A stretch of 64,000 nucleotides of DNA, taken from the NCBI GenBank assembly GCA_944341445.1, contig CALVLZ010000009.1, positions 10,062-74,061 on the forward strand. Direction: 5' to 3'. Source of the stretch: an uncultured Clostridia bacterium. Lineage in GTDB: Bacteria > Bacillota > Clostridia > Christensenellales > UBA1242. Below, in pieces: positions 5,335-31,527 of this stretch. A model generated the notes under the pieces. That model worked only from the letters and a program-made list of their open reading frames with translations. It was not told where the DNA came from and did not search any database. The position numbers were made by a program, and so were the translations under genes. How positions within the stretch are numbered: position 1 is the first letter of the stretch; the number at the start of each line of letters is the position of its first letter.

Positions 5335-5583
5335 TTATTCTTCATCAATAAATTGTTTTATTTCAAGAAGATTATCATATGTTAATTCTGGAGAATTAAG
5401 TTCTTCATAGGCTTCAACAAAAGCATTTTTAACTTCTTCAGAATATTCTTTATTCTTTAAAGCAATATCTTTCATTTTTTCTGCCACTTTAACAACTTCT
5501 TCTTTTGTTTTAAAATCAACTGATTTAATTATTTTTTCAATAACGCTAAATCTGTTAATAGAAACATTACTTTTCTTAGCCAT
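5335..5583 (-). CDS. Small helical, mildly acidic hypothetical protein
   Basis: 82 aa, no TM, K/E-rich. RBS is taaggagtttgtt-ATG. It lies 90 nt downstream of the giant gene with no hairpin in between, so it is probably co-transcribed. Confidence 0.5.
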   Translation of the reverse strand: MAKKSNVSINRFSVIEKIIKSVDFKTKEEVVKVAEKMKDIALKNKEYSEEVKNAFVEAYEELNSPELTYDNLLEIKQFIDEE

Positions 5584-14850: not shown

Positions 14851-14870
14851 AAAGTGATTAAAATCACTTT
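14851..14870 (-). terminator. Probable terminator after the VirB6-like pair
   Basis: Inverted repeat aaagtgatt / aatcacttt abutting the stop codon at 14870-14872. A T-rich tract follows on the minus strand. The loop is very short, so the effective stem is shorter. Confidence 0.5.
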
Positions 14871-17098
14871 TATTCTTTATCTTCACTATATTTTTTATAT
14901 CTTGCCGTCCTATCAAAATTATGTCCAAATAAAGTATTGTTTTGACTTTTCTGTTGAGCATTTAAATATTTTGAATTTGCTTTATTAACTCTTTTTTCAG
15001 ATTTAGCTAAAGCCTTTACATCCCTCTCAGATTCTTTGTCAGATCTATGATATCCTGCAACATTTTTTTGTGCCTCATCCCTTTCATTCTCTGCATCTTT
15101 CAGATTTCTACTCATTCTTTCGTATTTTTCATCTAGCCTATCTTGTTTTTCAGAAGCACGTCTATCTTGATAATATTGTCTTGAAGTTAAACCTTCTTCT
15201 TGATATTTCTTCTTAACTTCTTTATCTCTTTCTTTTAAGGATCTAAAATTTTTTTGCTGTGCTTCAAACTTTTCTTCTTTTTTCTTAGCTCTCTCAGCTT
15301 TTTTAGGATTTACAGGTTTGTTTTTAGGATCTCTCATCTGTATACCCAAACCAGCACCCAATTGTTTACCTATTGCATTTCTTTTTACCCTAAAGTTTGC
15401 CATTGATTGAGAAGTTTTTTGATCTAATTTATTTGCTAAATCTCTTGCTCGTCCACGGTTTCTTATTTGCCTATTACTTGTTGTTTTACCCATTTTTGCA
15501 TCAATTTTATCACCAATTTTGGCACCAGCTTTTAAAGCAAGTGAAGCTCCTTTGGCTATAGCTGCCTTTGCCAAAGCACCAGCCCCTGTTGCAATAGTCG
15601 CCGCATTAACTACTGTATTACCAACTCTTTTAGCCATATCGCTACCAGCAGAAAGAGCATCATCAGCACCAATTAATTTTGAAATTAGTGTTCCGCCCTC
15701 TTTAACAGTTATTAATCCTGTTATAACTAAAATTAGTCTCATTAAACTATTTTGAAAACTCAAATTAATACCTTTGATTGCATTACCAGAATTGAAAAAA
15801 TCTATAGATTGAAAAAATGGCAACATTAAGAAAAATAAATTTAAAGCAATAATAGTTCCGTAAGCACCTATAATATTTCCAATAAAAGCTTTTCTCCATT
15901 CTCCAAAAGCGTTTCCTCCATCTAGTGGCATTAAACCAACAATAGGAGGTGCTACAACATAAAGCATCACGCTTTTAAACAATCTCATAACAATGCCTAT
16001 CGCAGACATTAGCATTATATAAGCACAAATAAATGTTCCAAAAGCAAGTATTACATAGTTTATGCTGTTTGTATCATAGAACTGAACCGCTAAATTACCA
16101 TTGGTTGCATCAAAAACATTTAGTTTTATGGTTCCATCTGCTTGTTTTTCACCAACCAAATATCTTCCATCAGAACTTAAAGTTAACTTTAAATCTGCTT
16201 TTGTTGCAAATCTATAAGCCATAGAATCTTTTGATATATAAATCTCGTTATTAAATAACTCTTCTTCACTTTCTGCAACAATTATATAATAACCAGACGA
16301 AAAACAATTGTTTATTATACTTGCCATATTTTGTTCATAAGAAACAGATTCTGTTACATCTGTTATTGGTGTAGATGGTATTTGTTGCAAACTAATAGTA
16401 TCACTTGTTGAGTTAATTTTATATCCTAGAAAAACTTGACCAGATGTAGAATTATTATGTTTGTAATTCCAAACAACAGTATTTTCTGAAACAATTGGAT
16501 TTAGCTGCTTATCTTTATCTTTGCTATTAACTATTAATTTATTAGCTGATGAACAAGACGCGCTAAAAACTGAATTTGATATTTTAGCCGAATTCACTTT
16601 TGTTGTTGCAGAATCTAATGCTTGCAATAAAAACTGAGATAATATAATCCCCATTGCAACTGCAATTGGTACTATTGCAAACATAGCCATACTCTTTAAT
16701 GAGTTTTTAAAAATTGCACTTTTATTATTTTCTGCTTTTTCTGTTGTGTATTCACTTCTTATAATTTGAATTATAGTTGCTATAAACATAATTACAATAG
16801 CAAGAACGGTTAAAGCAACAAACACATCCATTACTTGAGACGATGTTATTAATGCCAGTACGATATCATTATTTGAAGCAGTATCTCCTATCCATACTGT
16901 ATCTAAGCCAACTAATCTTTTAAATAAACTTTGGAAAAAGTCAACAAAATATAGAACTTTTAAAATCAAGCCAAAAATTATTTCACCAACTAAAGCAATA
17001 ATAGCGTTCATTATTTTTGTAACAATATCAATAAGTAAATTACTTAAAAACGTTATTAAACCTTCAAATATGTTTGCTAAAAACATTGACATATACAT
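14870..17098 (-). CDS. Polytopic membrane protein, VirB6/TrbL-like (paralog A) with charged C-terminal tail
   Basis: 742 aa with about 8 predicted TM helices, a ~200-aa loop between TM4 and TM5, and a Gly/Ala-rich segment. A K/E/R/Q-rich tail occupies about 14870-15481. It shares IIQIIRSEYTTE and PPIVGLMPLDGG with the adjacent paralog. AAGGAG RBS. The call rests on topology and context. Confidence 0.55.
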   Translation of the reverse strand: MYMSMFLANIFEGLITFLSNLLIDIVTKIMNAIIALVGEIIFGLILKVLYFVDFFQSLFKRLVGLDTVWIGDTASNNDIVLALITSSQVMDVFVALTVLAIVIMFIATIIQIIRSEYTTEKAENNKSAIFKNSLKSMAMFAIVPIAVAMGIILSQFLLQALDSATTKVNSAKISNSVFSASCSSANKLIVNSKDKDKQLNPIVSENTVVWNYKHNNSTSGQVFLGYKINSTSDTISLQQIPSTPITDVTESVSYEQNMASIINNCFSSGYYIIVAESEEELFNNEIYISKDSMAYRFATKADLKLTLSSDGRYLVGEKQADGTIKLNVFDATNGNLAVQFYDTNSINYVILAFGTFICAYIMLMSAIGIVMRLFKSVMLYVVAPPIVGLMPLDGGNAFGEWRKAFIGNIIGAYGTIIALNLFFLMLPFFQSIDFFNSGNAIKGINLSFQNSLMRLILVITGLITVKEGGTLISKLIGADDALSAGSDMAKRVGNTVVNAATIATGAGALAKAAIAKGASLALKAGAKIGDKIDAKMGKTTSNRQIRNRGRARDLANKLDQKTSQSMANFRVKRNAIGKQLGAGLGIQMRDPKNKPVNPKKAERAKKKEEKFEAQQKNFRSLKERDKEVKKKYQEEGLTSRQYYQDRRASEKQDRLDEKYERMSRNLKDAENERDEAQKNVAGYHRSDKESERDVKALAKSEKRVNKANSKYLNAQQKSQNNTLFGHNFDRTARYKKYSEDKE

Positions 17099-17131
17099 TT
17101 ATCTCCTTTTTATATTTGTTGACTTTTAAAT

Positions 17132-19621
17132 TTATTTTTTTGAACTATTGTTCTTTTTTTCTGCTTGCTCTTGAATTTTAGAAAACTCACGATGCATATT
17201 TGTACCTTTTTCATTTATGCCTTGATTAATTTTACCAGCCGCAATCTGACTTGTATTGTTATTTGTTGATTCGTTTAAAATTTTCTTATTTTCCTTCACT
17301 CCGGCCTTATAAATTTTATCAATATCTTTATTTTCCTTTTCTAATTCTCGAATCTGTGCTTTCAAATTATCAATTCTTGCTAATGATAAAGGATCCCCTT
17401 TTTCTTTTGCTTTTTTAATATCTTCTTTAAGTTCTTTGATCCTACTACTATTTTCAATTCTAGTTCTCTCAAGACCATTATTACTCATTTCTTCACGAGC
17501 AATGGCTCTTGCATATTTAGCATTTTCATATCTATTTTTTGTTCTATTAATTATATTGTCTGATAAAGTTTGTTTTAATGTTCTATGAAGCTCTAAATTT
17601 CCATCCTTGTCAAATCCAATCTTTCTAGAACTCATAATATTTGACATTTGAGAATTGTATTTATCTTGTATTTCTTTAATTTTTGGTGCAAGTTCTTTAT
17701 CAACTGCTTTCTTTTGCTCTTCAGATAAATTTTTATAATCTTTATCTTTATATAACTTGCCAATTTCACCTTGCATTTGCTTTCTTAAAGTTTCAGAAGC
17801 AATACTCTTTTCTGATGTTTTTTGTGTTGCATAATCTAATGAAGATTGATATGGTCTAAACACTTTATTCATGCTACCTATAAGACCTGTATCTTTTGCT
17901 CTAATTCTGTCCATTATAGAGCCTTTACCTTCTTTAACTCTCTTTCTACTTGCAGCAACAGACTTGTCCTTTTTTGGTTTTTCTGCTGAAGGAATAGAAG
18001 TAATACCTGTTGCCTTTTTAACTTGTTCAGTTAAAACGTTATTATGGGATTTTCTTTGTTGTTTATGATATTCTGCTTGTGCATTTAATTGTTTAACTCT
18101 ATCTGAATCACCTGTCATATAACCTGTGGCAATTGCTCTACCCTTATTAACTATAGATGCAACACCATGTCCAGCTGCAGCCATACCATGACCAACATTT
18201 GAAACAGTTCTGCCAACACTTTTCATTGTGCTTGCACCTGTGCTAATAGCATCACCAGCGCCAATCAATCCTCCAATTAATTTTGGAGTATCTTTAACCA
18301 TTAAACAACCAACTATAATAAATATTAATTGTGCTAACAAATTTGCTGTTTCATCTGTGGTTGCTGGATCAAAAATATTAATACTTTGTAACATTGGAAG
18401 CAATAAAAAGAAAATATTTAATGAAACAACAACACCATAAGCCATCAAAACTTCGCTAATAAATGTTTTCTTCCAAGTTCCAAAAGCTTTCCCACCATCC
18501 AATGGCATCATACCAACAATAGGTGGTGAAATTAATATAAGCAATACAGCCTTAAACATACGTTTTGCCATTCCAAATGCTGCAGTAAACAAGGCATAAA
18601 TACAAAAGAAACATCCAAAAAATAGAATAACAAAATTCATATTACTTGTTTTGTAAAACATTTTAACAAGGCTACCATTAGTATAAGTATAAACAGAGTC
18701 TATTCTTATAATTGTTGAACCATCTTTTAATGCATTTATGTTGGCTTCTTCAAGAAACTCTTCAGCACCAGGACCTTCTGCCCAAACATAATACCCACCT
18801 TTGAATAGCAAGTCAATTAAATCTGCTGCGTTATATGTTCCAGATGCCGTTACATCTTCTGTGTTTTCTGTTATATTATTTAATCTATCAATATATTTTG
18901 GTTGAGGGTCTTCTGGTCTATACTTATATCCAATTTTTATGTCTTCGTTTTTAAATTTCCAAGTTATAGAACCATCTTTACCATCAATATGCATTGATAA
19001 ATCACCAAAAGCTGCTTGCGTTTTCGAATCTTCAAGGTCACTTTCTGTAGGAGTTCTAAAACAATTTGCATTATATGCACTGGCAATAAAAATACTATTT
19101 GATATATTTGAAGTTTTTCCCACTTGTGTTGCAGCATCAATAGCTCTCAATAAGAAATTTGAAAGAATTATTCCCATAACAGAAAATAATGGAACTATAA
19201 AAAACATAACCAAACTTTTAATAGATGTTGCAAATATTGTAGCTTTTGTATTTTTTGCACCTTCAGTTGTATACTCACTTCTTATAATTTGAATAATGGT
19301 TGCAATCATAACAATGCAAACACTTAAAATTGATAGTGCTAATAAAACATCCAAAACATTTCGTTGAAATAACATCTGCAAAATCAAATCACTAGAATTT
19401 GATTCAATGCCGCTGTATGATGTATCTAAACCTGCAAGAATCCTAAAAATGTTTTGTGAAAAATCAATTAAAGACATCAGTTGCGCACCAATGCCAAACA
19501 ATACTCCACCCAATACATTTTGAATTAAAAACATTATTACATCAACTAACCATAAAAAGAGTTCAGTGATTTTTTCTATTAACCAATCTAAAACACCTAA
19601 ATTCATAGAAATAAAATGCAT
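17132..19621 (-). CDS. Polytopic membrane protein, VirB6/TrbL-like (paralog B) with long charged C-terminal tail
   Basis: The ORF track starts at TTG 19633. The ATG at 19619-19621 is preceded by GGAGG with a 5-nt spacer. 829 aa. Architecture matches paralog A (IIQIIRSEYTTE, PPIVGMMPLDGG at 18491-18526). The ~320-aa tail is coiled-coil-like and spans about 17132-18106. Confidence 0.55.
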   Translation of the reverse strand: MHFISMNLGVLDWLIEKITELFLWLVDVIMFLIQNVLGGVLFGIGAQLMSLIDFSQNIFRILAGLDTSYSGIESNSSDLILQMLFQRNVLDVLLALSILSVCIVMIATIIQIIRSEYTTEGAKNTKATIFATSIKSLVMFFIVPLFSVMGIILSNFLLRAIDAATQVGKTSNISNSIFIASAYNANCFRTPTESDLEDSKTQAAFGDLSMHIDGKDGSITWKFKNEDIKIGYKYRPEDPQPKYIDRLNNITENTEDVTASGTYNAADLIDLLFKGGYYVWAEGPGAEEFLEEANINALKDGSTIIRIDSVYTYTNGSLVKMFYKTSNMNFVILFFGCFFCIYALFTAAFGMAKRMFKAVLLILISPPIVGMMPLDGGKAFGTWKKTFISEVLMAYGVVVSLNIFFLLLPMLQSINIFDPATTDETANLLAQLIFIIVGCLMVKDTPKLIGGLIGAGDAISTGASTMKSVGRTVSNVGHGMAAAGHGVASIVNKGRAIATGYMTGDSDRVKQLNAQAEYHKQQRKSHNNVLTEQVKKATGITSIPSAEKPKKDKSVAASRKRVKEGKGSIMDRIRAKDTGLIGSMNKVFRPYQSSLDYATQKTSEKSIASETLRKQMQGEIGKLYKDKDYKNLSEEQKKAVDKELAPKIKEIQDKYNSQMSNIMSSRKIGFDKDGNLELHRTLKQTLSDNIINRTKNRYENAKYARAIAREEMSNNGLERTRIENSSRIKELKEDIKKAKEKGDPLSLARIDNLKAQIRELEKENKDIDKIYKAGVKENKKILNESTNNNTSQIAAGKINQGINEKGTNMHREFSKIQEQAEKKNNSSKK

Positions 19622-19893
19622 ATATTCCTCCAATCAAAAATAGTTGAATAATAATTCGATTCAGCAACTTCTTATAATTATATTATCTAACAATAATTAT
19701 ATAATATTACAACAGAAAAATCAAATATATTAATAAACAAAAAAACAATAAATGCACATTTGTTTATATTAAAATTTGCACAAATAAACAATTAAAACAA
19801 AAAGGACATTATAAAAATATAAATTGGAAAAACATTCCTATGAAAAATTAATCTGTCTGATTTAATGGAAACAAAAATAATTTTCTATAATTA

Positions 19894-19980: not shown

Positions 19981-20442
19981 TTAATATGTTAATACACCAA
20001 ATGTTCTACCAACTGCACATGCCATAGTTTTTAACATGCCAATTGAACTATCTTCTTCAGCAGCTTTTCCTCCGTTCCAACCATAACCAGATACTAAATT
20101 TGCAATATTTGGAGCATATTTAACAAATAATGCTAAAAGTGCCATTAACGCAAGCATTGCAATTATACCAATAACTGCATTTATTAAGCGTTTTTTAGCT
20201 TCTTCACGAGCATCTGAACTTTCTGCTCTTGAATATTTAACACCTAATATAATTGCATAAATTGAACCAGCAGTTCCAACTAAAATTAACAAAGGAACTA
20301 TCATCATATTTAAAACTTCTATAATAGGTTCAAATATGCTTTTATACCAGTCTTGTGTTGTAACATCTCCAGTTGTACCAGTACTTTCTGCATCTTCAGC
20401 TAAAAACTTAGAAAAGCCCATAATTAAATTCATTAAAGACAT
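19981..20442 (-). CDS. Small two-helix membrane protein, TrbC/VirB2-like (pilin-like conjugal transfer protein)
   Basis: 153 aa. Two hydrophobic helices are separated by a charged loop (KYSRAESSDAREEAKKR). GGGAGAG RBS. It has its own promoter-like element and terminator. The assignment rests on size, topology and context. Confidence 0.5.
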   Translation of the reverse strand: MSLMNLIMGFSKFLAEDAESTGTTGDVTTQDWYKSIFEPIIEVLNMMIVPLLILVGTAGSIYAIILGVKYSRAESSDAREEAKKRLINAVIGIIAMLALMALLALFVKYAPNIANLVSGYGWNGGKAAEEDSSIGMLKTMACAVGRTFGVLTY

Positions 20443-20862: not shown

Positions 20863-22980
20863 ATGATGGCAGACGAACAAAATAAGAAAAAGAAATCATT
20901 TACAACAAAAGTTATTTTTTTATTAGCTTTTATAGTTGTATCATTTATTATTTCATTAGCAGTTGCTGGTTATTTGGAATACAACGAAATTAAATTTGAT
21001 ACAGCATTAATATCTACACCAGGTTTTTTTATTCCTTTTGCTGTTTTAATAGGAGGTTTAATTTTTGTTACCTATTCCGTATTAAAAAAACCAGCAGATA
21101 AAAAGCCTAAATCTGAAATTAAAACAGAAAATAATATTAAAAAGTTTTACGATTCTCATTTTTTAACATTAGATGAGTTACGAAAACAAAAAAATTTTAT
21201 GTTCCATTATTGGGAAGAACTTAAAACTTTAAAAATTAAGAAAAGTCCATATGGAAAAAAATCAGATTTTATTCCTTGTGGAATACCAATTCGAGGAGAA
21301 TTGATTAATAATAGACTAGAAGTCAATATGTACTCTGCAGATACCCACGCACTTATAGTTGGTACTTCTGGTTCTGGTAAATCTTCAAGACTTGTTGAAC
21401 CAACAATTCATATTTTAAGTGAAACAGGCGTTAAACCTCACTTGGTTATAACAGACCCAAAAGGTGAATTATTCCACGATACAAGTGAATCTTTGAAGAA
21501 AAAAGGCTACAACGTAATAGTTTTTGATATTGACGATCCTTATTCCAGCACACGTTGGAATCCACTATCCAGCATCTATAGGATGTATAGAAAAGCTCAA
21601 ACCTTACGTGATTTAGTTAAGGTTCACAGAGGAGATAATCCAAAAACTTTAAATTTAAAATGTCCACAACGCGAATATTACAATGAATGGTATGAATTAG
21701 ATGGTTATGCTCTAGCCGATAAACAAAGTTTGGAAGATTTTATTATTTCAACAAAACAACAATTGGAATCAAGATGTGTTGAAGAGTTAAAAGATGTTGC
21801 AAGTGTTATTGTTCCAGAAAGCAAATCTAACGACCCATATTGGGAAAACTCTGCTAGAAGTTTTATTCAAGCAATAATGACTGCAATGTTAGAAGATTCT
21901 AACGACCCAGAACTTGAAATGACTGAAGATAAATTTAATTTCTACAACGTAAATCAAATTGCAAACTTGGTTGACGTTGACAGTATGGGAACAAACCCAT
22001 ATAAATCAATTTGCAAATATTTTAATGATAGAGATAACTTTTCTCAAGCAAAAATTTTAGCAAGTAACGTTGTTAATAATAGAATTGAAACACAACAAAA
22101 CTTATTTGGTACAATCACTGAAAAATTAAGTATGTTTAACGATATGGGCATGTGTTATGTTACAAGTGCGAACGAAATGAATTTAAACAACTTTGACGAA
22201 CAACCAAGTGCACTATACTTAAGAATTCCAGACCAAAAAGTCAACCGTTATCCAATTGCAATAATGTTTATAACACAGTTATATAAACAGTTAGTTGAAA
22301 TTGCAAACACTAAAGAAGGATTACTTGATAGACCTTGTTATTTCATAATGGATGAGTTTGCAAATATGCCTCAAATACCTAACTTTAAAACAGTTATAAC
22401 AGTTTCTCGTGGTAGAAGAATATTCTTTATGCTTATTGTTCAATCTTATGTTCAGTTAAAAATTGCATATGGTGAAGATGTTGCAACAACAATTGAAGAC
22501 AACTGTAACGTTGTTCTATTCTTAGCAACAAACGACCAAGCAACTGCACAAAAAATTTCTGAAAAATGTGGAACAATTTCTTTTAAAACCACAACAACAA
22601 GTTATAGTTCAAATAAAAGCAATAACAAAGAAGATAAAGGTGGCGAAAGCAAAAATGAAAGTGTTGCTATTGACACTAGACCGTTAATATATAAAGAGGA
22701 ATTATCAACAATTCAAAAAAATGGTCAAGTTTTAATTTTATTCCAAAAAGACTTCCCTGCTAAAAGCAAATTTACATCTGCTTACGACCCTGCAATGAGT
22801 AAATTCTATGACAGGACCCCTGCAAGACAATTGCCAAGCATCCCTAAAAGATTAAACATTGAACAAATAACTTATGATATTAGAAAAATCAATCAATTAA
22901 AAGATGAAAAAAGCAGAAAAAACAATTCATCTGCTAACAACTCAAATTTTGGCGGTTTTGATAGTTTTAACTTATTTTAA
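20863..22980 (+). CDS. VirD4/TraG/TraD-type type IV coupling protein (T4CP)
   Basis: 705 aa with two N-terminal TM helices. Walker A is GTSGSGKSS (21361-21387) and Walker B is YFIMDEFANM. The RGRRIFFMLIVQSYVQL segment is typical of TraG/VirD4 family ATPases. Confidence 0.85.
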   Translation: MMADEQNKKKKSFTTKVIFLLAFIVVSFIISLAVAGYLEYNEIKFDTALISTPGFFIPFAVLIGGLIFVTYSVLKKPADKKPKSEIKTENNIKKFYDSHFLTLDELRKQKNFMFHYWEELKTLKIKKSPYGKKSDFIPCGIPIRGELINNRLEVNMYSADTHALIVGTSGSGKSSRLVEPTIHILSETGVKPHLVITDPKGELFHDTSESLKKKGYNVIVFDIDDPYSSTRWNPLSSIYRMYRKAQTLRDLVKVHRGDNPKTLNLKCPQREYYNEWYELDGYALADKQSLEDFIISTKQQLESRCVEELKDVASVIVPESKSNDPYWENSARSFIQAIMTAMLEDSNDPELEMTEDKFNFYNVNQIANLVDVDSMGTNPYKSICKYFNDRDNFSQAKILASNVVNNRIETQQNLFGTITEKLSMFNDMGMCYVTSANEMNLNNFDEQPSALYLRIPDQKVNRYPIAIMFITQLYKQLVEIANTKEGLLDRPCYFIMDEFANMPQIPNFKTVITVSRGRRIFFMLIVQSYVQLKIAYGEDVATTIEDNCNVVLFLATNDQATAQKISEKCGTISFKTTTTSYSSNKSNNKEDKGGESKNESVAIDTRPLIYKEELSTIQKNGQVLILFQKDFPAKSKFTSAYDPAMSKFYDRTPARQLPSIPKRLNIEQITYDIRKINQLKDEKSRKNNSSANNSNFGGFDSFNLF

Positions 22981-23010
22981 ACTTGGAATCACATTCCAAG
23001 TTTATTTTTT
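22981..23010 (+). terminator. Rho-independent terminator of the VirD4-like gene
   Basis: acttggaat-cac-attccaagt 9-bp stem immediately after the TAA, followed by ttatttttt. Confidence 0.75.
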
Positions 23011-23513
23011 ATTAATAAAATTTAAACTTATTTTTATGTTCATTTTTTACAATTTTAACAATTTTAATTATTATGCAAACTTGTTAATTATGCCTATATT
23101 TTAGGTGTTTTATAGAAACATGCATAGCACATAGAAGTTAAATTATTATATAAAATTTTTAATTAAAATTTTATTTAAACTACAACAAAAGAACGATTGA
23201 TTAAAAAAATTTTTGAAAATTAAAAATTATTAATTTTCTTTTTTTTCCCCGTTTCATATGAAAAAATATTTTACAATTTATATAATTACAAACGCAGCAT
23301 TATAAATAAATTATTAAATTTATTTTGTTTTAACTTAACTTAAATGTTGAATAAAAGTATATGATTATGATAAAGAATATAAATTAAATAATTATATAAA
23401 ATATATATAATATATAATAAACAAATTAAAATTATTTTGTTAATTTTTTATTGTGTGATAAAATATTCGTAAATGAATTATTAAATATGGAAAATCATTT
23501 TAGGAGATTTAAA

Positions 23514-26500
23514 ATGCAAAAGATTAAAAAGTTGTGGATTTTTAGTTTTATATCTATGGCAATAGCCCTTTTCACTGTTTGGGGAATTTTTTCTATTATA
23601 AAATCAACAAGCAAAGTAAATGCAGACCAGTTGCCTGAAGGCGTTGAATATGCTGCTTATATCGATAAGAGCGTTAGTTTCACTGAATATTCAGAAGATA
23701 CTGGTTATGTGTATGCAGAAGGCACTAGAAAATACGTTACCAAAAATGAAATAATTTCAGACGTAAATGGCAAATATGTTGAAATGCTTGAAAATAATGA
23801 AAATGGAGCAATTCAAAACACAAACTTTAACATTTTAAGAAATAGCCACGATAGTTATGTAACAAGTGGAATTGCAGAAAACTTCTACTTTACAATTGGA
23901 ACTGCCGTAAGCGGACCTGATGCAACATTGGACCCAAGCAAAACATATTTAACAGCTTTGCAAATTAATATGTTTTTAAATGGAAAAATGTTATATATTA
24001 ATCCAAGAAATTCAACAAATGTTATGGTTGACAACAAAGAAACAAGCATTGACTATTGGTATCAATATATAGACTTAACTAATATGTATTATTCGTTAGA
24101 TAACGACCCAAACCAAAAAGGTGAAAAAGTTGAAAATCCACAAGGAACATTTACATTAACATTCCAATTCTCAACAGTTAAAAATAATCAAATTGGCAAT
24201 GCTGTTACATATCAAGTTTCCTACACTACACTTTCGCAAAAAACTTATAAAGATAATTTTCCATATTTTGAAAACACTTTAAAAAATGTTGACACTTCAA
24301 CATATTTCACAAGTGAAGGAAGTAGTTCACCTTTACAATATTATTACAACTTTAATAACAAAAATAATATAGTTGAAACCAAAAAAGTTTTACCATCTTA
24401 TGTTTTTGACGCAAAACTTTATGGTTTGAATATTACTAGACAATATAACGATTTAATTGAATACATAACAACTGAATTTAGTATTGATGAAAATCAAACA
24501 GGAAAATTAAATATAAATTATTGGAATGCTGACAAACAAACCCTAATAAAAAAGGATACTGTTACAATTCCTAACGATGGCGGAAAATATATTTACAAGT
24601 TGGAATTTGAAGATTTTGGTGTTTACACTGTTGAAAACTTTTATATGGTTGAAACAACAAAAGAAGGTTCAACAGCAACTCGAACATTCCAAATGGCAAC
24701 AGGCTCAAATGTTTTAGCAAATCCAACTGAAAGTTTGCAATATTTTAAAAATGTTGAAAAAGATGTTTCTGTTAGTGGCGATGCATATGGCAAAAACACA
24801 TTTATTTTAAACAATGTTGGTATTAAATCATTCTTTTTAGATTATTCAAAAGTAAATAAAGAAATTGATAACTATTCCGTTATTAAAGAAAACAATCAAA
24901 ATTACAGCGACACTAATTGGTTAACAGCTAACATTGCTTCTAAAATTGAAAGTAACACTGGTTCTTATAGTTTAACAAATTATTTAAACACTAGTTACAA
25001 CACTTCATTATTTAAAACTATATTTGGTGCAAACATTCAGACAGTTGAAGAATTCAATAACAACTTCCCTGTTTTAAACCAAGGCCCAATTAGTTTTGAA
25101 AGATTTGGAACAATTAATCAAACTAAAAGCAAATATAAAATTTACCCTACTTTTAATGATTTATTAAATGGCACAACAGATTCAAACATTGTTAAACAAG
25201 GTGTTATTACAAAAGACACAAAATTAACACAAGTTGGCTATTACGAAGTTTTAATTAATTATGAATATAATGGAATAGATTTTGCTCAAGCATTTATTTT
25301 CTGCATTGACAAAAGTTCTCCAACTTCAACTTTGTACACATACGATGCTGAAAATGGCAATAAAGAAATTTTAACAAAAAAATATACAAACAAGATTGTT
25401 GAATTTGAATTTCCTAAACAAACATATTTCCAAGCTCCAATCAGAGCAAGATATATTAGAACAGAATTAGGAACAGGTTTCTCAAACAATTTTGATGGTG
25501 TTGAATTTAATTACACATCAGGAACTCAATTAATAGATGATGGTAACTATAGCATTCAATTGGTATTTGGCGAAACAGATAGTTACTACATTGAACAATT
25601 TGTTATTGATACTTTAGATATTGATGGCATGAAATACTCACCTATTGATGCAGTTTACAATGAGAACAACCAAGTTATTGGCTACACATTAAAAAGTGAT
25701 ATTTCAACAAGCAACGCAAATTTAACAAGTCACCCATTTACATTCTTATTTAACGAAAAATTAAGTGATGCAAAAATAGAAGTTAAATATAAAAAATTTA
25801 ATTTTGAATTAATTTCAAGTTCTGGAAATTTATTAGATAATGTTACTGCACTTGAAACTAATAAATATGTAACAACAGGCTATAAATTAGTTAACAAAGT
25901 TTCCGCTTATTCAGATTACTTTGCGTTTGATAAAAATTCTTTAGAAGTTCCTGAAAAAAATGTATTTGTTGATAACACTAGCGGTTTATACATTTTTGAA
26001 CTTGTTGATGAAGCAGGCAACACTGCAACATTCTTTGTTATTTACGATTTAACAAAACCACAAGTTGTGTTTAACCCACAAATTGAAAACAAATATAACA
26101 TTGTTAACTCTGCAACAGATATCATTTGGGGACAAAGCAAAGCAACATTAGTTGAAAAAGTTAATGATGGAGATGAATCTTTTAATAACTTATTAAATGA
26201 CCCTGAAAGTAACTTCCAAAGTTATTTCTCACAAATTGAAAACAAAAATTATATGTCTGTTAAAAACTCAAACGTTGTTTTTGAATATTATTTAAATAAT
26301 GTATTACAAACAACAACTATTAATGTTGGAGCAACATCTGATGATTGGCACAAAACAATTTACCCAACACAAGAAGATGCACCACAAGGAACTTCAGAAC
26401 ATTTTATTGGTGAAAAAGATTACACTATAACAATAACACCATCGACAAACACAAATTACACAACTTCTTTAAACAACGATGTTAAATCAAAGTTTAACAT

Positions 26501-29500
26501 TTCAATGAACTTAGATTCTTCCATTGGAATATTTAATGGTTATTATGATGAACATTCTGATAACAGCACAGGTATTAGAATTTTAAAAGACACTTCAACT
26601 AACTCAAACAAACTTCGTTTTAGTTTAATCCCAAAACTTGACGAAGTTGAAGATCCTAACAGAGTTATTGAATTAAGTTATGAATACTACCCTGTTGCAG
26701 TTAGTGAATATGAAAACTTGCAAGATGGTTCTAGTTTAACAATTCAAGCTAACAGTGATGGAAAACCTAATGTATTATACCCTTTCAGCAAAAACCCAAC
26801 AATAACAAAAACATTAATTAGCAATGGCTCAATTGTTGATATGTCTTCATATTCAGACCCTGAAGACCCTGAAAGAGTTTTCTCAAACATAATTAACCCA
26901 ACCATAATTAATGGAGAAACATTCACACAAGAAGGTTTCTACATTTTCAAAAGAGTTTATGATGAAGAAAAGTTTGCAACCGTTGAAGATAGCAATGATA
27001 CTTTAATTAGATATTATGCAGTTTGCGTAACACGTGAAGGCATAATAAACATTTCAGATTCAATTTCAACAGGAAAAAATATTTCATTTAGTATGCCAAA
27101 TGGAAACAAAGAACCTGTTATATTCACTGCAGAAGATATTCAGAGTTATATTAGTGCAGGTGAAACAAATCTTTTCACAACTAATAAATTACCATTAAAA
27201 TTCACATTGCCAAATGATAAATATGATGCAGAAACAACTTTGAACAATATTTCTAATATTGATTCTGAATATTTAATAAATGCAATTAATTTAAATAACA
27301 GATTGTTTGGTTTAAAATTAACTTTAACAAACAAATATTTATTAAACAATGGTTACACAACTGAAAATGTTGTTGTTGATAACGTTGTTAATAGAAATTA
27401 CAACACTTATAAAATTTTTGATGATACCGGTTCTTTAATAAACCCATCAAGCGATACTCGTGTTAGAGAAAGTGGATTTAACAAAGCTGGAAGTTTTACT
27501 GTTACTATTAGTGATAGTTCTGGCATTGATAAGTTCCCAAGCAACACAACAACTTTTAATTACACAATATCCCACTACTCTCCTAATGGAAAATTTATTA
27601 ACAACAATTATTCTTATTCAGAAAGACCTTCCCAAACAGAAGCGAACAAAACAATTTTTAAAAGCACAAATCAGAAAGAAATTTATTTTTCATTTAACGA
27701 TAAAGGTGAAGTTGGCGGAATTAATGGAATTGATATGTTCAAAGCCGAAATTGACCCAACAAACATCGAAGTTAAACAAATATTGCCAAACGGAGCAGTT
27801 GGAAAAACATATACAATTAAAAACCAAGAACAACTTAACACTGCAATTGCAGAAGGATTAATTGAAAAAGTTAATTTTAACTCTGCAGGAGATGTTGTTG
27901 AAGATAACGACCCTGGCATTATTGCAACCAATTACATAATTCATATAACAAGCGAAACAAGTCCTGAAACAAGCATAATGAACGGAACAGGAACAGAAAG
28001 CACATATGAAGTTAAATTATGTTTTGTTGGAAATGAGAATGATTATATTGGAACATCTGCAAATGGCGAAACTGTTAATTATTTCTACAGAACTTTCTCA
28101 ATAACAGTTGATAGAACAAAACCTAGCGCAAATGTTAACAAATTAAAAGCAAATGATAAATTCACAGATTCTAGCTTCACCGCTAATTTAGAAAGTTATA
28201 TGTTTGCGGTAACAGATTTGCAACAAAGTTCTGCATTCTTTAAATTCACAAGAGAAAATAACAACGTAAATGAAAGTGATGAGATTTTTGCTAGGTACCT
28301 ATCTTCTCCATTAAATTATTTGCAAACAATAACTCCAGACAATCCAAATTACAAAAATTTAGTTGTTTACCCTAACAATCCAATGTTTGAAGAAGGCAAC
28401 AGTATTTATGTTAATTTACAAGGCTATAATGAAGAAGGTGTTATTAACCTTGAAACTTTGGGAGAAAGCGGTTATTATGAAATTATTGAACGTGATGAAG
28501 CTGGAAACTACATTGTTTATGTTGTACACTACGTTAAAGCATCTGATTTAGTTAACTATGTTCCTAATTTAAACATTAGTTACAACAATGTTAACTCAGA
28601 TACACCAATTGCTAAAGACATATCTGGCAATTATAATGATATTTTAACAACACAATACACAACTGAAATATTAGGTGAAAACTTCAGTATTAATAACATT
28701 AAAACTTATAATTATGTTGACTTGTTCCAAAAAGTTACAGTTAATATAAACAATCAACGTGAAAAAACATTTATAAGCACTGCAGAAGATAAACAACTTT
28801 CTAATTTAAATAGTTTCTTATCAGAAATTAATAGTTACATAAAAACTCAAACAGAATCAAGTTTGAAAAATGGTTACAAAGTAACAATAACCTTAACAAA
28901 CAGGTTCTTTGAAAATTATGTTATCACATACTTAATTGCAGGCGCTCAATTAGAACCAATTTATAACATTAACGAAACTAAACAAACAATTCAAATAACA
29001 ATTCCAAACGATAACGAAACAACAAAAATTGTTGCATTCAGAGTTTATAAATTCGAAAATGGTGCTTGGAAGTTATTAAATACAGATAACTCCTCACCTA
29101 ACCCAAAACCAATTATAACAAGCGCTGAATTAGTTGGAAGAGAATCTTTAGCTGGTGATACTTATAATTTTGGCGCTGGCGAATATCAATTTGAATTGAT
29201 TGATAATTTTGGAAGAGGTTTATCTGAAAATAACGAATCTTTCTTTAAAGGTGTTGGAATTAGTAACGTTGCATACTTTAGTGATTTTTACAATAATCAA
29301 CAACCTGCTGAAGGAGGAAATGTTGTTAACTACACTGCAAAGCCTTTCACATTCACATATCAATCTAACTACTATAATTTAAACATTTATTTACCAACAG
29401 AAAATGGAAATTTCTCAAAAACTCCAATAAACACAGCAAATAACCCAGATTGGTTAACACAATATTCTGCTCTTATTGAAGAATCTAGAGTTGTTGGTAG

Positions 29501-31496
29501 CATTATAACTTATAAATTTAAAAATAACGAAAATGCAGTTGAAAGAAAATTTAAAATTGAACTTGTTTACACAAGAGGAACAATTCAACAAATTCAAACT
29601 TACATTTTAAGTATTTATAACATCTTACCAGAAATTAATTTATATAATTTATCTGGAGCAATTTTGCCAAACAGCAACGATGAATTAAATCCAACAATTC
29701 TAACTCAACCATTTAGAATTAATTGGGAAACTGATAACTTTAACACTGTTGTTAATTTAACACGTGTTTATACTGATGATTTGGGAAGAACACAAACTGA
29801 AAACATTAACAACATTTCTCAAAATTACTTAATTGATAAACCAGGCTTCTACACTGCAAGCATAACTAACAAATTTGGTTATACTCACACTGAATACAAC
29901 AGATACTTTAAATATTTAGAAGATAATGTTGAATTGTATTCTGTTATTGCAGTGGAAAACGGAATGGATAAAACATTCTTGAAAAATGCTGATAATAATG
30001 AAGTTTATGTTGATGAACAAGGCAAGGAGCATCCATTAATTGTTTATTATGCAACAACAGATTTTGATGGTTCTAACAGCAATAAATATATTGAAATTAG
30101 GGTTAACACAGACCAACAACTACAATCTGAATCAATACCTAACCCTTCTGGAATAGAAGTTCCTAATGAAAAATATTACAAAATTTCTTCAATGGATGAA
30201 AACACTTCTTTCGGTTACATTAGATACATCAAAATTAAATTTATTAATGCTTCAACAAACTTTGCAGAGCCTCTAATTGAACAACCAAACAATGAAGGAA
30301 ACCTTGAAGCAGTTGACATTCCAAGCAATAACACAATTAAAACAATTAAGGATTATTTAAAAATTTCTTGGTCAATAAAAAATTCTGATGAAATTTTCGA
30401 TATTAATTCTGCATACAACAAAGTTAATATAACAGTTTTATATAGAGATGCTTTGAACAACTTAGTTAAATTATCACCTGCAATAACTATTGATGAAGAA
30501 AGTGCTAAAGCATATATCACTTTAACAAAAGCTGGAAAATATGTTATTTCCTTTTCAGATTTAGCAGGCAACACTCACCTATTCAATGGTTCTAGCAACT
30601 TAAATATAACAATTGCAAATGATGTATTGTTCACTGTTAACAACAATGAACCAATACAAAACCAATACTTTAATGATGAAGTTATAATAAAAGTTTTAAA
30701 AGATTCAACCTTGTATTATGGTGACCCTATTGTAACAGCAACAAGAAATGGCGAAACTTTTGAAATTGAAAAAGTTGAAAATACACTTGATTCTTATATA
30801 TTCAAATTACAAGGCTACTATCAAGTTACAATTTCAACAAAAATAACAATTAATGGTGAAATTGTTGATTTAATCACAATTTATTCATTCACAATAATTA
30901 ATAACAATCAATCAAATTTATGTTTCAACATTCCAGAAAGTTATAATTTCAGAATTGTTGAAGTTATAAAAAATGAAAATGAAAATATAACAGATAGTTT
31001 TGATTCTTTAAATTCTTTATGGTTATCACCTGCAGACACAGGAAATGGTATTTATGATATAACATTATTATATGATGATGTTGTTAATGGAATAAAACAA
31101 ACATTCTCATTTAGTGTTTGGATTGGCGACGAACAACCTGTTCTAATTTCAAATTATGAATTTGGAACAAGCACAAATAAAGAAATAACAATAACTTATA
31201 ATCCACAAGCAATCTATTCTCAAATTGGTGAATCTTATATTAAAATATCTGGCTTTAAAGATATTGAAATTAATAGCGAATCACCTAACACTCAAGCAAA
31301 TGTTGTGTTAAAAGAAAACAGAGAATATTGGATTAGAATAACAAGCAAAGATGGAAAAATTATAACTTCATATAAAATAACAAAAGTTGAACCACTAAAC
31401 ACAACTGCAATAATTATAATTGTTGTTGTTTGTGTGTTAGTTGTTGCATTAACAGTTGTATTCATAATCTTGCGTAAACATATTAAATTTAGATAA
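23514..31496 (+). CDS. Giant (2660 aa) secreted surface protein with C-terminal membrane anchor
   Basis: The ORF opens at TTG 23451, but the ATG at 23514 is preceded by AGGAG. The N-terminal signal-like segment is MQKIKKLWIFSFISMAIALFTVWGIFSIIKSTSKVNA. The body is N/T/Y-rich with Ig-like module boundary signatures (D-x-AGN ... D-[KRL]-[ST]-[KS]-P). A C-terminal TM helix (31407-31472) is followed by RKHIKFR. There is no LPXTG. Confidence 0.8.
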   Translation: MQKIKKLWIFSFISMAIALFTVWGIFSIIKSTSKVNADQLPEGVEYAAYIDKSVSFTEYSEDTGYVYAEGTRKYVTKNEIISDVNGKYVEMLENNENGAIQNTNFNILRNSHDSYVTSGIAENFYFTIGTAVSGPDATLDPSKTYLTALQINMFLNGKMLYINPRNSTNVMVDNKETSIDYWYQYIDLTNMYYSLDNDPNQKGEKVENPQGTFTLTFQFSTVKNNQIGNAVTYQVSYTTLSQKTYKDNFPYFENTLKNVDTSTYFTSEGSSSPLQYYYNFNNKNNIVETKKVLPSYVFDAKLYGLNITRQYNDLIEYITTEFSIDENQTGKLNINYWNADKQTLIKKDTVTIPNDGGKYIYKLEFEDFGVYTVENFYMVETTKEGSTATRTFQMATGSNVLANPTESLQYFKNVEKDVSVSGDAYGKNTFILNNVGIKSFFLDYSKVNKEIDNYSVIKENNQNYSDTNWLTANIASKIESNTGSYSLTNYLNTSYNTSLFKTIFGANIQTVEEFNNNFPVLNQGPISFERFGTINQTKSKYKIYPTFNDLLNGTTDSNIVKQGVITKDTKLTQVGYYEVLINYEYNGIDFAQAFIFCIDKSSPTSTLYTYDAENGNKEILTKKYTNKIVEFEFPKQTYFQAPIRARYIRTELGTGFSNNFDGVEFNYTSGTQLIDDGNYSIQLVFGETDSYYIEQFVIDTLDIDGMKYSPIDAVYNENNQVIGYTLKSDISTSNANLTSHPFTFLFNEKLSDAKIEVKYKKFNFELISSSGNLLDNVTALETNKYVTTGYKLVNKVSAYSDYFAFDKNSLEVPEKNVFVDNTSGLYIFELVDEAGNTATFFVIYDLTKPQVVFNPQIENKYNIVNSATDIIWGQSKATLVEKVNDGDESFNNLLNDPESNFQSYFSQIENKNYMSVKNSNVVFEYYLNNVLQTTTINVGATSDDWHKTIYPTQEDAPQGTSEHFIGEKDYTITITPSTNTNYTTSLNNDVKSKFNISMNLDSSIGIFNGYYDEHSDNSTGIRILKDTSTNSNKLRFSLIPKLDEVEDPNRVIELSYEYYPVAVSEYENLQDGSSLTIQANSDGKPNVLYPFSKNPTITKTLISNGSIVDMSSYSDPEDPERVFSNIINPTIINGETFTQEGFYIFKRVYDEEKFATVEDSNDTLIRYYAVCVTREGIINISDSISTGKNISFSMPNGNKEPVIFTAEDIQSYISAGETNLFTTNKLPLKFTLPNDKYDAETTLNNISNIDSEYLINAINLNNRLFGLKLTLTNKYLLNNGYTTENVVVDNVVNRNYNTYKIFDDTGSLINPSSDTRVRESGFNKAGSFTVTISDSSGIDKFPSNTTTFNYTISHYSPNGKFINNNYSYSERPSQTEANKTIFKSTNQKEIYFSFNDKGEVGGINGIDMFKAEIDPTNIEVKQILPNGAVGKTYTIKNQEQLNTAIAEGLIEKVNFNSAGDVVEDNDPGIIATNYIIHITSETSPETSIMNGTGTESTYEVKLCFVGNENDYIGTSANGETVNYFYRTFSITVDRTKPSANVNKLKANDKFTDSSFTANLESYMFAVTDLQQSSAFFKFTRENNNVNESDEIFARYLSSPLNYLQTITPDNPNYKNLVVYPNNPMFEEGNSIYVNLQGYNEEGVINLETLGESGYYEIIERDEAGNYIVYVVHYVKASDLVNYVPNLNISYNNVNSDTPIAKDISGNYNDILTTQYTTEILGENFSINNIKTYNYVDLFQKVTVNINNQREKTFISTAEDKQLSNLNSFLSEINSYIKTQTESSLKNGYKVTITLTNRFFENYVITYLIAGAQLEPIYNINETKQTIQITIPNDNETTKIVAFRVYKFENGAWKLLNTDNSSPNPKPIITSAELVGRESLAGDTYNFGAGEYQFELIDNFGRGLSENNESFFKGVGISNVAYFSDFYNNQQPAEGGNVVNYTAKPFTFTYQSNYYNLNIYLPTENGNFSKTPINTANNPDWLTQYSALIEESRVVGSIITYKFKNNENAVERKFKIELVYTRGTIQQIQTYILSIYNILPEINLYNLSGAILPNSNDELNPTILTQPFRINWETDNFNTVVNLTRVYTDDLGRTQTENINNISQNYLIDKPGFYTASITNKFGYTHTEYNRYFKYLEDNVELYSVIAVENGMDKTFLKNADNNEVYVDEQGKEHPLIVYYATTDFDGSNSNKYIEIRVNTDQQLQSESIPNPSGIEVPNEKYYKISSMDENTSFGYIRYIKIKFINASTNFAEPLIEQPNNEGNLEAVDIPSNNTIKTIKDYLKISWSIKNSDEIFDINSAYNKVNITVLYRDALNNLVKLSPAITIDEESAKAYITLTKAGKYVISFSDLAGNTHLFNGSSNLNITIANDVLFTVNNNEPIQNQYFNDEVIIKVLKDSTLYYGDPIVTATRNGETFEIEKVENTLDSYIFKLQGYYQVTISTKITINGEIVDLITIYSFTIINNNQSNLCFNIPESYNFRIVEVIKNENENITDSFDSLNSLWLSPADTGNGIYDITLLYDDVVNGIKQTFSFSVWIGDEQPVLISNYEFGTSTNKEITITYNPQAIYSQIGESYIKISGFKDIEINSESPNTQANVVLKENREYWIRITSKDGKIITSYKITKVEPLNTTAIIIIVVVCVLVVALTVVFIILRKHIKFR

Positions 31497-31500
31497 AAAA

Positions 31501-31527
31501 ATAACGGCAATCGCCGTTATTTTTTTG
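31501..31527. terminator. Bidirectional rho-independent terminator between the giant surface gene and the rho-like gene
   Basis: ataacggc-aatc-gccgttat hairpin with a G/C core. A T-run follows on the plus strand and an A-run precedes it. Confidence 0.8.

Follow-up and report, generated by a model that had tools for sequence, protein, structure and literature searches.

A 2660-residue membrane-anchored protein encoded after virD4 in an uncultured Clostridia bacterium as a candidate contact component of a resident type IV secretion system

We analysed a 64,000-nt stretch of contig CALVLZ010000009.1 from an uncultured Clostridia bacterium (the window; nucleotide positions refer to this whole stretch and amino acid (aa) positions to the giant protein described here). 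On profile evidence, the last 280 aa or so of the protein encoded by its giant gene (23514 to 31496, plus strand, stop codon included; 2660 aa; a 100% match to P0001), made of three beta modules, a transmembrane (TM) helix and a basic tail, are homologous to small proteins encoded directly after virD4, the gene of the coupling protein of type IV secretion systems (T4SSs), at other loci. In view of this homology, the giant most likely represents, in enlarged form, the component by which a T4SS makes contact with cells, and we hold, with somewhat more belief than doubt, that it derives from such a system and still works as a contact component of a chromosomal, non-mobile machine. A first-pass annotation had placed the gene downstream of the coupling protein and had taken its product for the contact or adhesion component of a conjugative apparatus. 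The location was correct, as virD4 (20863 to 22980) immediately precedes the gene and has the same orientation. The C-terminal homology and gene order upheld a link to the T4SS, but no conjugative element can be recognised in the apparatus.

The small post-VirD4 proteins were found at 16 loci of a virD4-seeded set of 80 metagenome loci (numbered, like the other loci below, with the prefix L), 61 of which had enough sequence. They are 300 to 710 aa long, start with an N-terminal signal peptide and are encoded by genes that abut or overlap virD4. Their C-termini read ...G-x-Y-x-[IV]-T-A-T-D-x-A-G-N-x-x-x-Y-x-F-R-I...N-x-[SN], followed by a TM helix and by R-x-x-[KR]-x-[RK]-V-R. An alignment of 50 giant C-termini (A9) was compared by hhalign with an alignment of the 16 small proteins (A8; for example L138:11721-12803), and the two matched at 99.2% (E 6e-20) over 232 columns reaching both C-termini, and at 97.8% (E 1.3e-12) when the TM helix and tail were removed. 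Comparison of the small proteins with the profile of the C-terminal 1200 aa of the giants showed that the best match was to the extreme C-terminal modules (96.3%), the other modules giving 69% or less, while nothing above 13% was obtained in the profile comparison with the giant N-terminal half. Hidden Markov models (HMMs) of the giants and of the small proteins matched each other reciprocally and matched nothing else in the loci.

This profile homology places the giant, as an enlarged member, in a family of anchored surface proteins of the virD4 neighbourhood. Giant and small proteins have in common the C-terminal 235 to 280 aa with the G-x-Y...D-x-AGN sequence, the TM helix, a tail of the form R..[KR].[RK]V[RK] and the N-terminal signal, and both occupy the slot after virD4 on the same strand. 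They differ by the approximately 2300 N-terminal residues of the giant, which are without counterpart in the small proteins, and by the terminator and 533-bp spacer that separate the giant gene from virD4. The small proteins belong to no Pfam or NCBIfam family. Several of them (L113, L116, L117, L124, L126, L131 and L147) carry, N-terminal to the common core, tandem P-x-W-F/Y repeats and proline-rich linkers (FPDWFYDLP..PVWFY..IPQWFY..IPDWFY is one example), a module that is absent from the giants and might be a wall- or ligand-binding element.

The results of our locus survey showed that virD4 was immediately followed, on its own strand, by the gene of a family member in 31 of the 61 loci (15 giant and 16 small), and that a further 2 giants were located near virD4. 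The order virD4-giant recurs across lineages with GC contents from 0.28 to 0.49, and the virD4-seeded loci with a family member include lineages of GC 0.36 to 0.49. This order is kept at loci whose pilin, VirB6 and VirB4 genes do not adjoin it (L087, L091, L096 and L104), and in the clade of L038, L041, L046 and L059 only the pilin and VirD4 genes precede the giant. The gap after virD4 is 194 to 1039 bp at giant-type loci and -43 to +189 bp at small-type loci. In a neighbour-joining tree of the giants, several deep branches contained T4SS-adjacent members and certain clades the unlinked ones, a spread which suggests that adjacency to the T4SS is ancestral.

Other giant ORFs (open reading frames) lie near virD4 in L107 (12050-21955, minus strand), L111 (12108-22022, minus strand), L110, L112, L128 and L145. 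They are of more than 2100 to 3300 aa, rich in T, S, N and Y and devoid of a C-terminal TM helix, belong to other lineages, and are convergent to virD4 or a few genes off. One of them carries a DLAGN motif; all were rejected by HMM as remote members of the family. A conserved protein of about 160 aa is encoded directly after virD4 in L110, L112, L128 and L145.

Several observations weigh against a functional link between the giant and the T4SS. Among about 37 giant-seeded loci with 8 to 10 kb of upstream flank, T4SS genes adjoined the giant in 17, while about 19 had no T4SS gene within 10 kb; the neighbours in the latter were SpoIIID, YabP/YabQ/DivIC-like genes, an amidase, SpmA/B and the FBA aldolase. 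The order in L043 and L061 is GAPDH-Frag1-aldolase-giant, and the T4SS block, located in the window between Frag1 and the giant, is missing. In the T4SS clusters L064 and L066, found from VirB4, virD4 adjoins a housekeeping gene and not a giant. The most constant neighbour of the giant is not virD4 but a gene for a Rho-like protein, which adjoins it in 32 of 64 loci. The giant gene is also a separate transcription unit in the window: virD4 ends in a hairpin terminator (22978 to 23004, plus strand; 12-bp stem and T-run; RNAfold -12.5 kcal/mol), an AT-rich spacer of 533 bp that contains an AGGAG follows (22981 to 23513, plus strand), and a bidirectional hairpin (31494 to 31527; -17.0 kcal/mol, with a stem of 15 bp between an A-run and a T-run) can terminate both the giant gene and the convergent Rho-like gene. 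The first-pass annotation had already noted this spacer and strong terminator, and both were found. The AlphaFold2 models of the giant are of low confidence, with a predicted local distance difference test score (pLDDT) of 58.6 for aa 1461 to 2660 and of 42.5 for the N-terminal half. Finally, a lectin, adhesin or enzymatic domain, for which a search of the N-terminal part had been proposed as a check, was not detected with Pfam and NCBIfam in the giant or in 13 diverse members of its family, and the model of the N-terminal half could not be used for this purpose.

These observations could be explained if the giant were a surface adhesin or fibril of general purpose, binding host mucus, plant fibre, other cells or biofilm, which descends from a T4SS-associated protein and is now independent of the T4SS, its adjacency to virD4 being only an inherited gene order. 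We regard this as possible though doubtful. About half of the giant-seeded loci, without a T4SS gene within 10 kb, and the terminator-bounded unit with its long spacer are in its favour, as is the fast evolution of the N-terminal part (see below), typical of any exposed adhesin. In addition, the whole region virB4...giant-RhoL-YpeB-SleB-SpoIIR is syntenic in the loci of class A, so that the adjacency of giant and virD4 could be passive there. However, the virD4-giant order survived both the divergence in GC content and the rearrangements that removed the other T4SS genes, the conserved part of the giant is exactly the module common to the operonic post-VirD4 proteins, and none of the virD4 or giant loci examined holds both a small and a giant member. 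The first-pass link to the T4SS is upheld by the C-terminal homology and by 31 of 61 loci. A distribution of homologs independent of T4SS genes, which the first-pass annotation had named as its refutation, is half borne out in gene order, by the giant loci lacking a T4SS gene in the 10 kb around them and by T4SS clusters without an adjacent giant.

We then considered the T4SS itself, in order of position in the window. The VirB4 ATPase (11860 to 14583, minus strand; Mbov_0397 family) matched NF045975 over its full length with 586 bits against a cutoff of 590, and had 474 relatives at E<=1e-60, the best 120 of which were 58 to 65% identical. Two paralogous VirB6-like polytopic membrane proteins of 742 and 833 aa (14870 to 19633, minus strand; MMCAP2_0566/Mbov_0396 family) scored 117 to 122 bits with NCBIfam (cutoff 90), and the VirB2-like pilin (19981 to 20442, minus strand) scored 27.6 bits with PF18895 (cutoff 26.6) and 40.5 bits with the Mbov_0395 family (cutoff 40). 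The VirD4-type coupling protein (plus strand; CD1115 family) matched Pfam T4SS-DNA_transf at 6e-50 and NF045973 with 291 bits (cutoff 250). The NCBIfam families matched are named from integrative and conjugative elements (ICEs) of mycoplasmas (Mbov_0395, Mbov_0396 and Mbov_0397) and from a clostridial element (CD1115). The rest of the 64 kb is housekeeping and encodes MnmA, GAPDH, M29 peptidase, YpeB, SleB, SpoIIR, KsgA, TatD, MetRS, HolB, GreA, DnaE, WhiA, MurB, UvrC, a class-I tRNA synthetase (PF00579, Trp/Tyr type), PrfA, PrmC and MurC.

Membership of these families, and the fact that surface proteins are required for mating in such elements (PMC6030558, PMC12857230), would fit a giant that is the mating adhesin of a mobile ICE and binds recipients for self-transfer of the element. 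We consider this very improbable. Pfam searches of nearly all window ORFs of at least 100 aa found no relaxase, integrase or DDE transposase, although a Pfam-less 1937-aa ORF could hide a novel one, and the flanks of the block are all housekeeping genes. The location is the same in many species: virB4, VirB6-like and pilin genes on one strand, virD4 and giant on the other, and then the Rho-like gene, ypeB, sleB and spoIIR on the first strand again. Comparison of pairwise identities at the 11 loci with all genes showed that VirD4 correlates with YpeB (r=0.76) and SleB (r=0.68) as well as YpeB does with SleB (0.76), and that the giant correlates with YpeB at 0.87 (Mantel p<=0.001). The T4SS clusters of the small type have housekeeping neighbours as well (SerRS, Obg and a PlsX-like gene), and two small homologs had no tblastn match in 72,556 plasmids. 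Judged from these comparisons, the T4SS block of the window is resident, chromosomal and vertically inherited, since the divergence of VirD4 tracks that of YpeB and SleB, and is not an ICE; the conjugative character given to it in the first-pass annotation was not borne out. A T4SS that is chromosomal, vertically inherited and relaxase-less would more likely be a resident machine for cell-to-cell contact or transfer than a self-transmissible element.

Some other features of the T4SS loci were recorded. The loci of the window, L001, L045, L064 and L066 have 1 to 4 paralogs of the PF18895 VirB2-like pilin and no relaxase nearby. The 1937-aa ORF (5674 to 11487, minus strand), which adjoins virB4, is K/E-rich and has no signal, TM helix, Pfam match or homolog in the fetched loci; although it is the other giant ORF of the window, it is unrelated to the giant. 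Unrelated ORFs of 1769 and 1247 aa, without Pfam match, occupy the same position after virB4 in L066, and these and the 1937-aa ORF are possibly lineage-specific T4SS cargo or accessory proteins. An acidic ORF of 82 aa (5335 to 5583, minus strand), between the Frag1-like gene and the 1937-aa ORF, has an 81-aa counterpart with 51% identity just past the T4SS block in L064 and L065, and may be a conserved small T4SS-associated gene.

The giant gene lies in an open frame from 23451 to 31496, with an AGGAG at 23502-23506, 7 nt 5' of the ATG at 23514. Kyte-Doolittle hydropathy (19-aa windows, cut-off 1.6) showed two hydrophobic segments only, an N-terminal one (aa 4 to 31, the h-region of the signal) and the C-terminal TM helix. 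The first 37 aa (23514 to 23624; this and the following features of the gene are on the plus strand) form a signal peptide or signal-anchor with MQKIKK, a 23-aa hydrophobic core and VNA/DQ; cleavage is predicted after A37, so that the mature protein would begin at D38 (23625). The hydrophobic N-terminal segment is retained in the family consensus, and the signal MQKIKKLWIF...KVNA/DQ contains no Cys and hence no lipobox. The variable ectodomain (aa 38 to 2378; 23625 to 30647), delimited by conservation and indels, holds the large indels among family members and most of the substitutions between strains, and is covered by the structure model and fold matches from aa 1461; it is taken to be all-beta, with probably about 20 divergent beta-sandwich modules. 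The membrane-proximal conserved region, delimited by profile comparison (aa 2379 to 2630; 30648 to 31403), consists of about three putative beta modules and ends ..SYKITKVEPLNT. The single TM helix (aa 2631 to 2653; 31404 to 31472), found by hydropathy and also a helix in the AlphaFold2 model, precedes the basic cytoplasmic tail RKHIKFR (31473 to 31493) at the end of the protein. The tail pattern R..[KR].[KR].[RK] is common to the giants and to the small homologs (..RKNLRVR). ORF and hydropathy analyses confirmed in this way the 2660-aa protein with signal-like segment, C-terminal TM helix and basic tail that had been described, and its N/T/Y-rich, Cys-poor body was also recovered by comparison with the other window proteins (N x1.5, T x1.9, Y x1.6 and C x0.13).

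The C-termini of the giants read ...SYKxTKxEPLNT, then the TM helix, then LRKHIKFR or FRTRMKVR. This tripartite layout, with a basic cluster at the extreme C-terminus, resembles LPXTG and -CTERM signals, and P2627 is invariant in 64 giants while L2628 and N2629 are invariant in smaller family alignments, directly before the helix. The PLNT motif, helix and tail could then be a sorting signal cut by a sortase-like enzyme, and the product would be wall-linked or released. We find this hardly credible, as no known sorting-signal model of NCBIfam matches, no sortase-like gene was seen in any locus, and the small homologs have N/D-x-[NS] where the giants have PLNT, so that the motif varies in the family at large. 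A regex search found no LPXTG-type motif in the giant, as stated in the first-pass annotation (the sole loose match is SPETS at aa 1483), and the LPXTG-anchor models of NCBIfam did not match it either.

The D-x-AGN and D[KR][ST][KS]P motifs reported earlier were found at their positions. The DxAGN motif occurs three times (aa 832, 1661 and 2349; 26007, 28494 and 30558) when 0.03 is expected from composition, and its positions are invariant or nearly so in the whole family. The first occurrence belongs to DEAGN ... DLTKP (aa 832 to 849; 26007 to 26060), an HYR/DUF5011-like strand motif followed by the start of the next module, in which D832 and G835 are invariant and A834 and N836 are conserved at more than 90% in the family alignment. 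The second is part of YYEIIERDEAGNYIVY (aa 1654 to 1669; 28473 to 28520), the most conserved stretch of the whole giant family, with Y1654, Y1655, E1656, I1657, E1659, D1661, N1665 and Y1669 conserved at 100%; the strongest motif of the family, GYYEIIExDEAGNYxVY (aa 1653 to 1669), is invariant in 64 sequences. The third, DLAGN (aa 2349 to 2353; 30558 to 30572), was identified by motif search and family alignment. Module-boundary motifs are DKSSP (aa 599 to 603; 25308 to 25322), in which P603 is conserved in 97%, and DRTKP (aa 1533 to 1537; 28110 to 28124), in which D1533 and P1537 are invariant in 64 sequences. We take the succession G-x-Y...D-x-AGN...V-x-V-D-x-T-x-P to resemble domains of the HYR/DUF5011 type, which are immunoglobulin (Ig)-like.

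The giant was searched as a single sequence, as profiles of 8, 56 and 61 sequences, and through 13 diverse members of its family. No Pfam match was obtained even at E<=10, the HYR and DUF5011 models included, nor any NCBIfam match or sequence match in the PDB, and self-BLAST found no internal sequence repeats. The AlphaFold2 models were built from an 8-sequence alignment. The model of aa 1461 to 2660, the one taken into the fold search, was all-beta save one terminal helix at the predicted TM segment. The Foldseek search of this model against the PDB gave 100 matches at E<=0.001, and those listed were essentially all multi-Ig or beta-sandwich proteins (GhpA 9fly, CEA, titin, alpha-2-macroglobulins, contactins and the S-layer protein EA1). 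Their TM-scores were near 0.1, and the similarity is consequently of a generic 'beads on a string' kind. The first-pass proposal of stacked Ig-like modules can be kept with moderate confidence, the all-beta model and the multi-Ig matches being for it and the low pLDDT and lack of internal repeats against it; the analysis by AlphaFold and Foldseek that had been suggested gave a model with fold matches for aa 1461 to 2660 and an unusable model for the N-terminal half. Because of the size of such modules, the giant may consist of some 20 to 25 divergent beta-sandwich modules and would be of the order of 100 nm long if extended.

The presence of S-layer proteins (8opr EA1 and 7ptp) among the many multi-Ig matches, and the fact that the giant is a single-copy core gene found among sporulation genes in several contexts, could also point to a structural envelope protein, such as a wall-spanning spacer, an S-layer-like coat or a component of the spore surface, with no role in cell contact. 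This seems quite improbable. The S-layer matches did not surpass those to titin, CEA or alpha-2-macroglobulin, with TM-scores of about 0.1, and no SLH or cell-wall-binding domain was found with Pfam in the giant or the 13 diverse members. A lattice protein is not expected to be only 25 to 35% identical between related species and to vary from 2400 to 4800 aa, and the homology with the post-VirD4 proteins would be left unexplained.

A word-indexed search found seven relatives of the giant of 2663 to 3720 aa with 25 to 35% identity. HMMER searches with the C-terminal 1200-aa profile found 517 clusters (50% identity) at E<=0.001 and 399 at E<=1e-30; among the 150 clusters listed, nearly all match most of the profile through to the C-terminus, and the shorter proteins are fragments. 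Full-length members have about 2300 to 4800 aa. A scan of one genome per GTDB species, with the YYEIIERDEAGNYIVY region as pattern, recovered 56 giant loci, one per assembly, in uncultured gut metagenome-assembled genomes (MAGs) labelled Clostridia, Christensenellales, 'Christensenella sp.' and Candidatus Onthoplasma, and in one 'Spirochaetales' bin. The latter (L024, JBFXFT010000009.1) has the full T4SS-giant-Rho-like locus, and its label is most likely a binning or labelling error and not a real transfer. Nothing specific on a described T4SS of Christensenellales or on the giant protein family was found in the literature.

The giants are collinear, with the best conservation in the C-terminal 300 aa or so, including the helix and tail, and the lowest in the first 500 aa or so, where insertions and indels of 150 to 400 aa occur. 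The comparison of allelic variability between strains that had been suggested was done on one pair of the three near-identical strains on record. The giant differed at 70 of 2660 residues (2.63%), VirB4 at 11 of 907 (1.21%) and YpeB at 1 of 443 (0.23%), and 58 of the 70 differences were in the first 1400 aa of the giant (chi-square p=4e-7). The membrane-distal half of the giant evolves fastest at both strain and species levels, as the changes between strains and the indels between species are concentrated N-terminally. The closest relative (L003/P0002, 35% identity) and one other member have an inserted CarboxypepD_reg-like beta-sandwich domain (Pfam 8e-8), which indicates that modules are gained within the ectodomain.

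According to the favoured reading, that of a T4SS contact component, the giant would be exported by the Sec pathway as a type I membrane protein whose N-terminal signal is either cleaved off or retained as an additional anchor, and the single C-terminal helix would hold it in the cytoplasmic membrane with only seven basic residues inside the cell. Approximately 2590 residues of Ig/HYR-like beta-sandwich modules would cross the wall and project outward as a fibre of perhaps 100 nm when extended. Its role would resemble that of PrgB or of mycoplasma CDS14 in mating-pair formation (PMC12857230, PMC6030558), the machine served being more likely a resident one for cell-to-cell contact or transfer than a self-transmissible element. 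Docking at or near the T4SS channel (VirB6-like proteins and VirD4) is probably the task of the slowly evolving base, formed by the membrane-proximal modules, the helix and the tail, and contact with a partner cell or surface probably falls to the long N-terminal part, which evolves fast; adhesion itself is our inference.

Surface adhesins attached to T4SSs of monoderms are a known kind of protein, from which the giant differs in its anchoring by a TM helix, its size, its unannotated family and its host system. Monoderm T4SSs are thought to use LPXTG adhesins or none. PrgB, or aggregation substance, represents the LPXTG adhesins (pCF10) and has about 1300 aa; like the giant it is a surface protein of a monoderm T4SS with an N-terminal signal and Ig-like stalk modules. 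Unlike PrgB, the giant is TM-anchored without LPXTG, is chromosomal with no relaxase, is roughly twice as long or more, and has neither a detectable sequence relationship to it nor a polymer adhesin (glucan-binding or antigen I/II) domain, none being found with Pfam at E<=10 or in the 13 diverse members. For both proteins the presumed role is partner-cell contact, which would take the place of a conjugative pilus (PMC12857230). CDS14 of the mycoplasma ICEs (ICEA/ICEB) is a surface lipoprotein that mating cannot do without, and for which complementation in trans works even when the recipient supplies it (PMC6030558). The T4SS genes of the window are in the same NCBIfam families as those of mycoplasma ICEs, but none of the mycoplasma-ICE models matched the giant; CDS14 is anchored by an N-terminal lipid while the giant lacks a lipobox Cys and is anchored C-terminally, the two are an order of magnitude apart in size, and the mycoplasma element, with its DDE transposase, is mobile. 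The grappling-hook protein GhpA of Aureispira (9fly) gave the best Foldseek match (E 5e-12) and also has long strings of beta-sandwiches, but the match is generic (TM-score 0.09 to 0.12, 10% identity, no sequence homology) and its secretion route and anchoring are different.

The closest described analogue of the T4SS of the window is, on gene content, that of Patescibacteria, which is chromosomal, relaxase-less and MPF-FATA-related, with VirB2-like pilins (PMC12102498). Such pilins are otherwise not found in T4SSs of Gram-positives, Patescibacteria being the exception according to a 2025 review (PMC12857230). Both systems have VirB4, VirD4, VirB6-like proteins and PF18895 pilins (1 to 4 per locus in the present type), are chromosomal and have no relaxase nearby; however, the host of the window belongs to a spore-forming lineage of Clostridia, and the likeness is one of gene content. 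A bolder proposal, which we think unlikely as a whole, is that a whole clade of uncultured, low-GC, spore-forming gut Clostridia, namely Christensenellales and their relatives, keeps a domesticated relaxase-less T4SS with VirB2-like pilins, the Firmicute counterpart of that of Patescibacteria, with the giant as a contact fibre of about 100 nm. Instead of plasmid or ICE transfer, this T4SS would be used in obligate or habitual dealings with neighbouring bacteria (feeding on them, killing them or exchanging material with them), and the fast-evolving N-terminal tip of the giant would set partner specificity.

In abundant gut Clostridia that are uncultured, homology and gene order thus connect an unannotated family of about 500 clusters (at 50% identity) with the position following virD4. 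Should this connection prove functional, the family would be a T4SS surface component of a new class, anchored by a TM helix and able to grow from 300 to nearly 4800 aa, and some of the largest genes of these organisms would gain a name and a role open to testing. The connection would also point to a resident T4SS, and the HMM of the giant family would be a ready marker for such systems.

The Rho-like gene (31540 to 32754, minus strand; 404 aa), convergent with the giant gene in the window, is convergent with it also in loci without T4SS genes, and is on the same strand and directly upstream in L036. Its product has a Rho_N and a Rho RNA-binding domain and aligns to residues 59 to 342 of Thermotoga Rho (3l0o). 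The ATPase is degenerate, with a Walker A of GGRNILVLNKTNNN instead of ..PPKAGKT, a D to N change in Walker B and a truncated C-terminus, and the Walker A motif is missing in 31 of 32 orthologs. That a dead Rho tied to a gene of 8 to 11 kb modulates termination within this gene is pure speculation. The Rho-like protein evolves as fast as the giant, with 25 to 35% identity.

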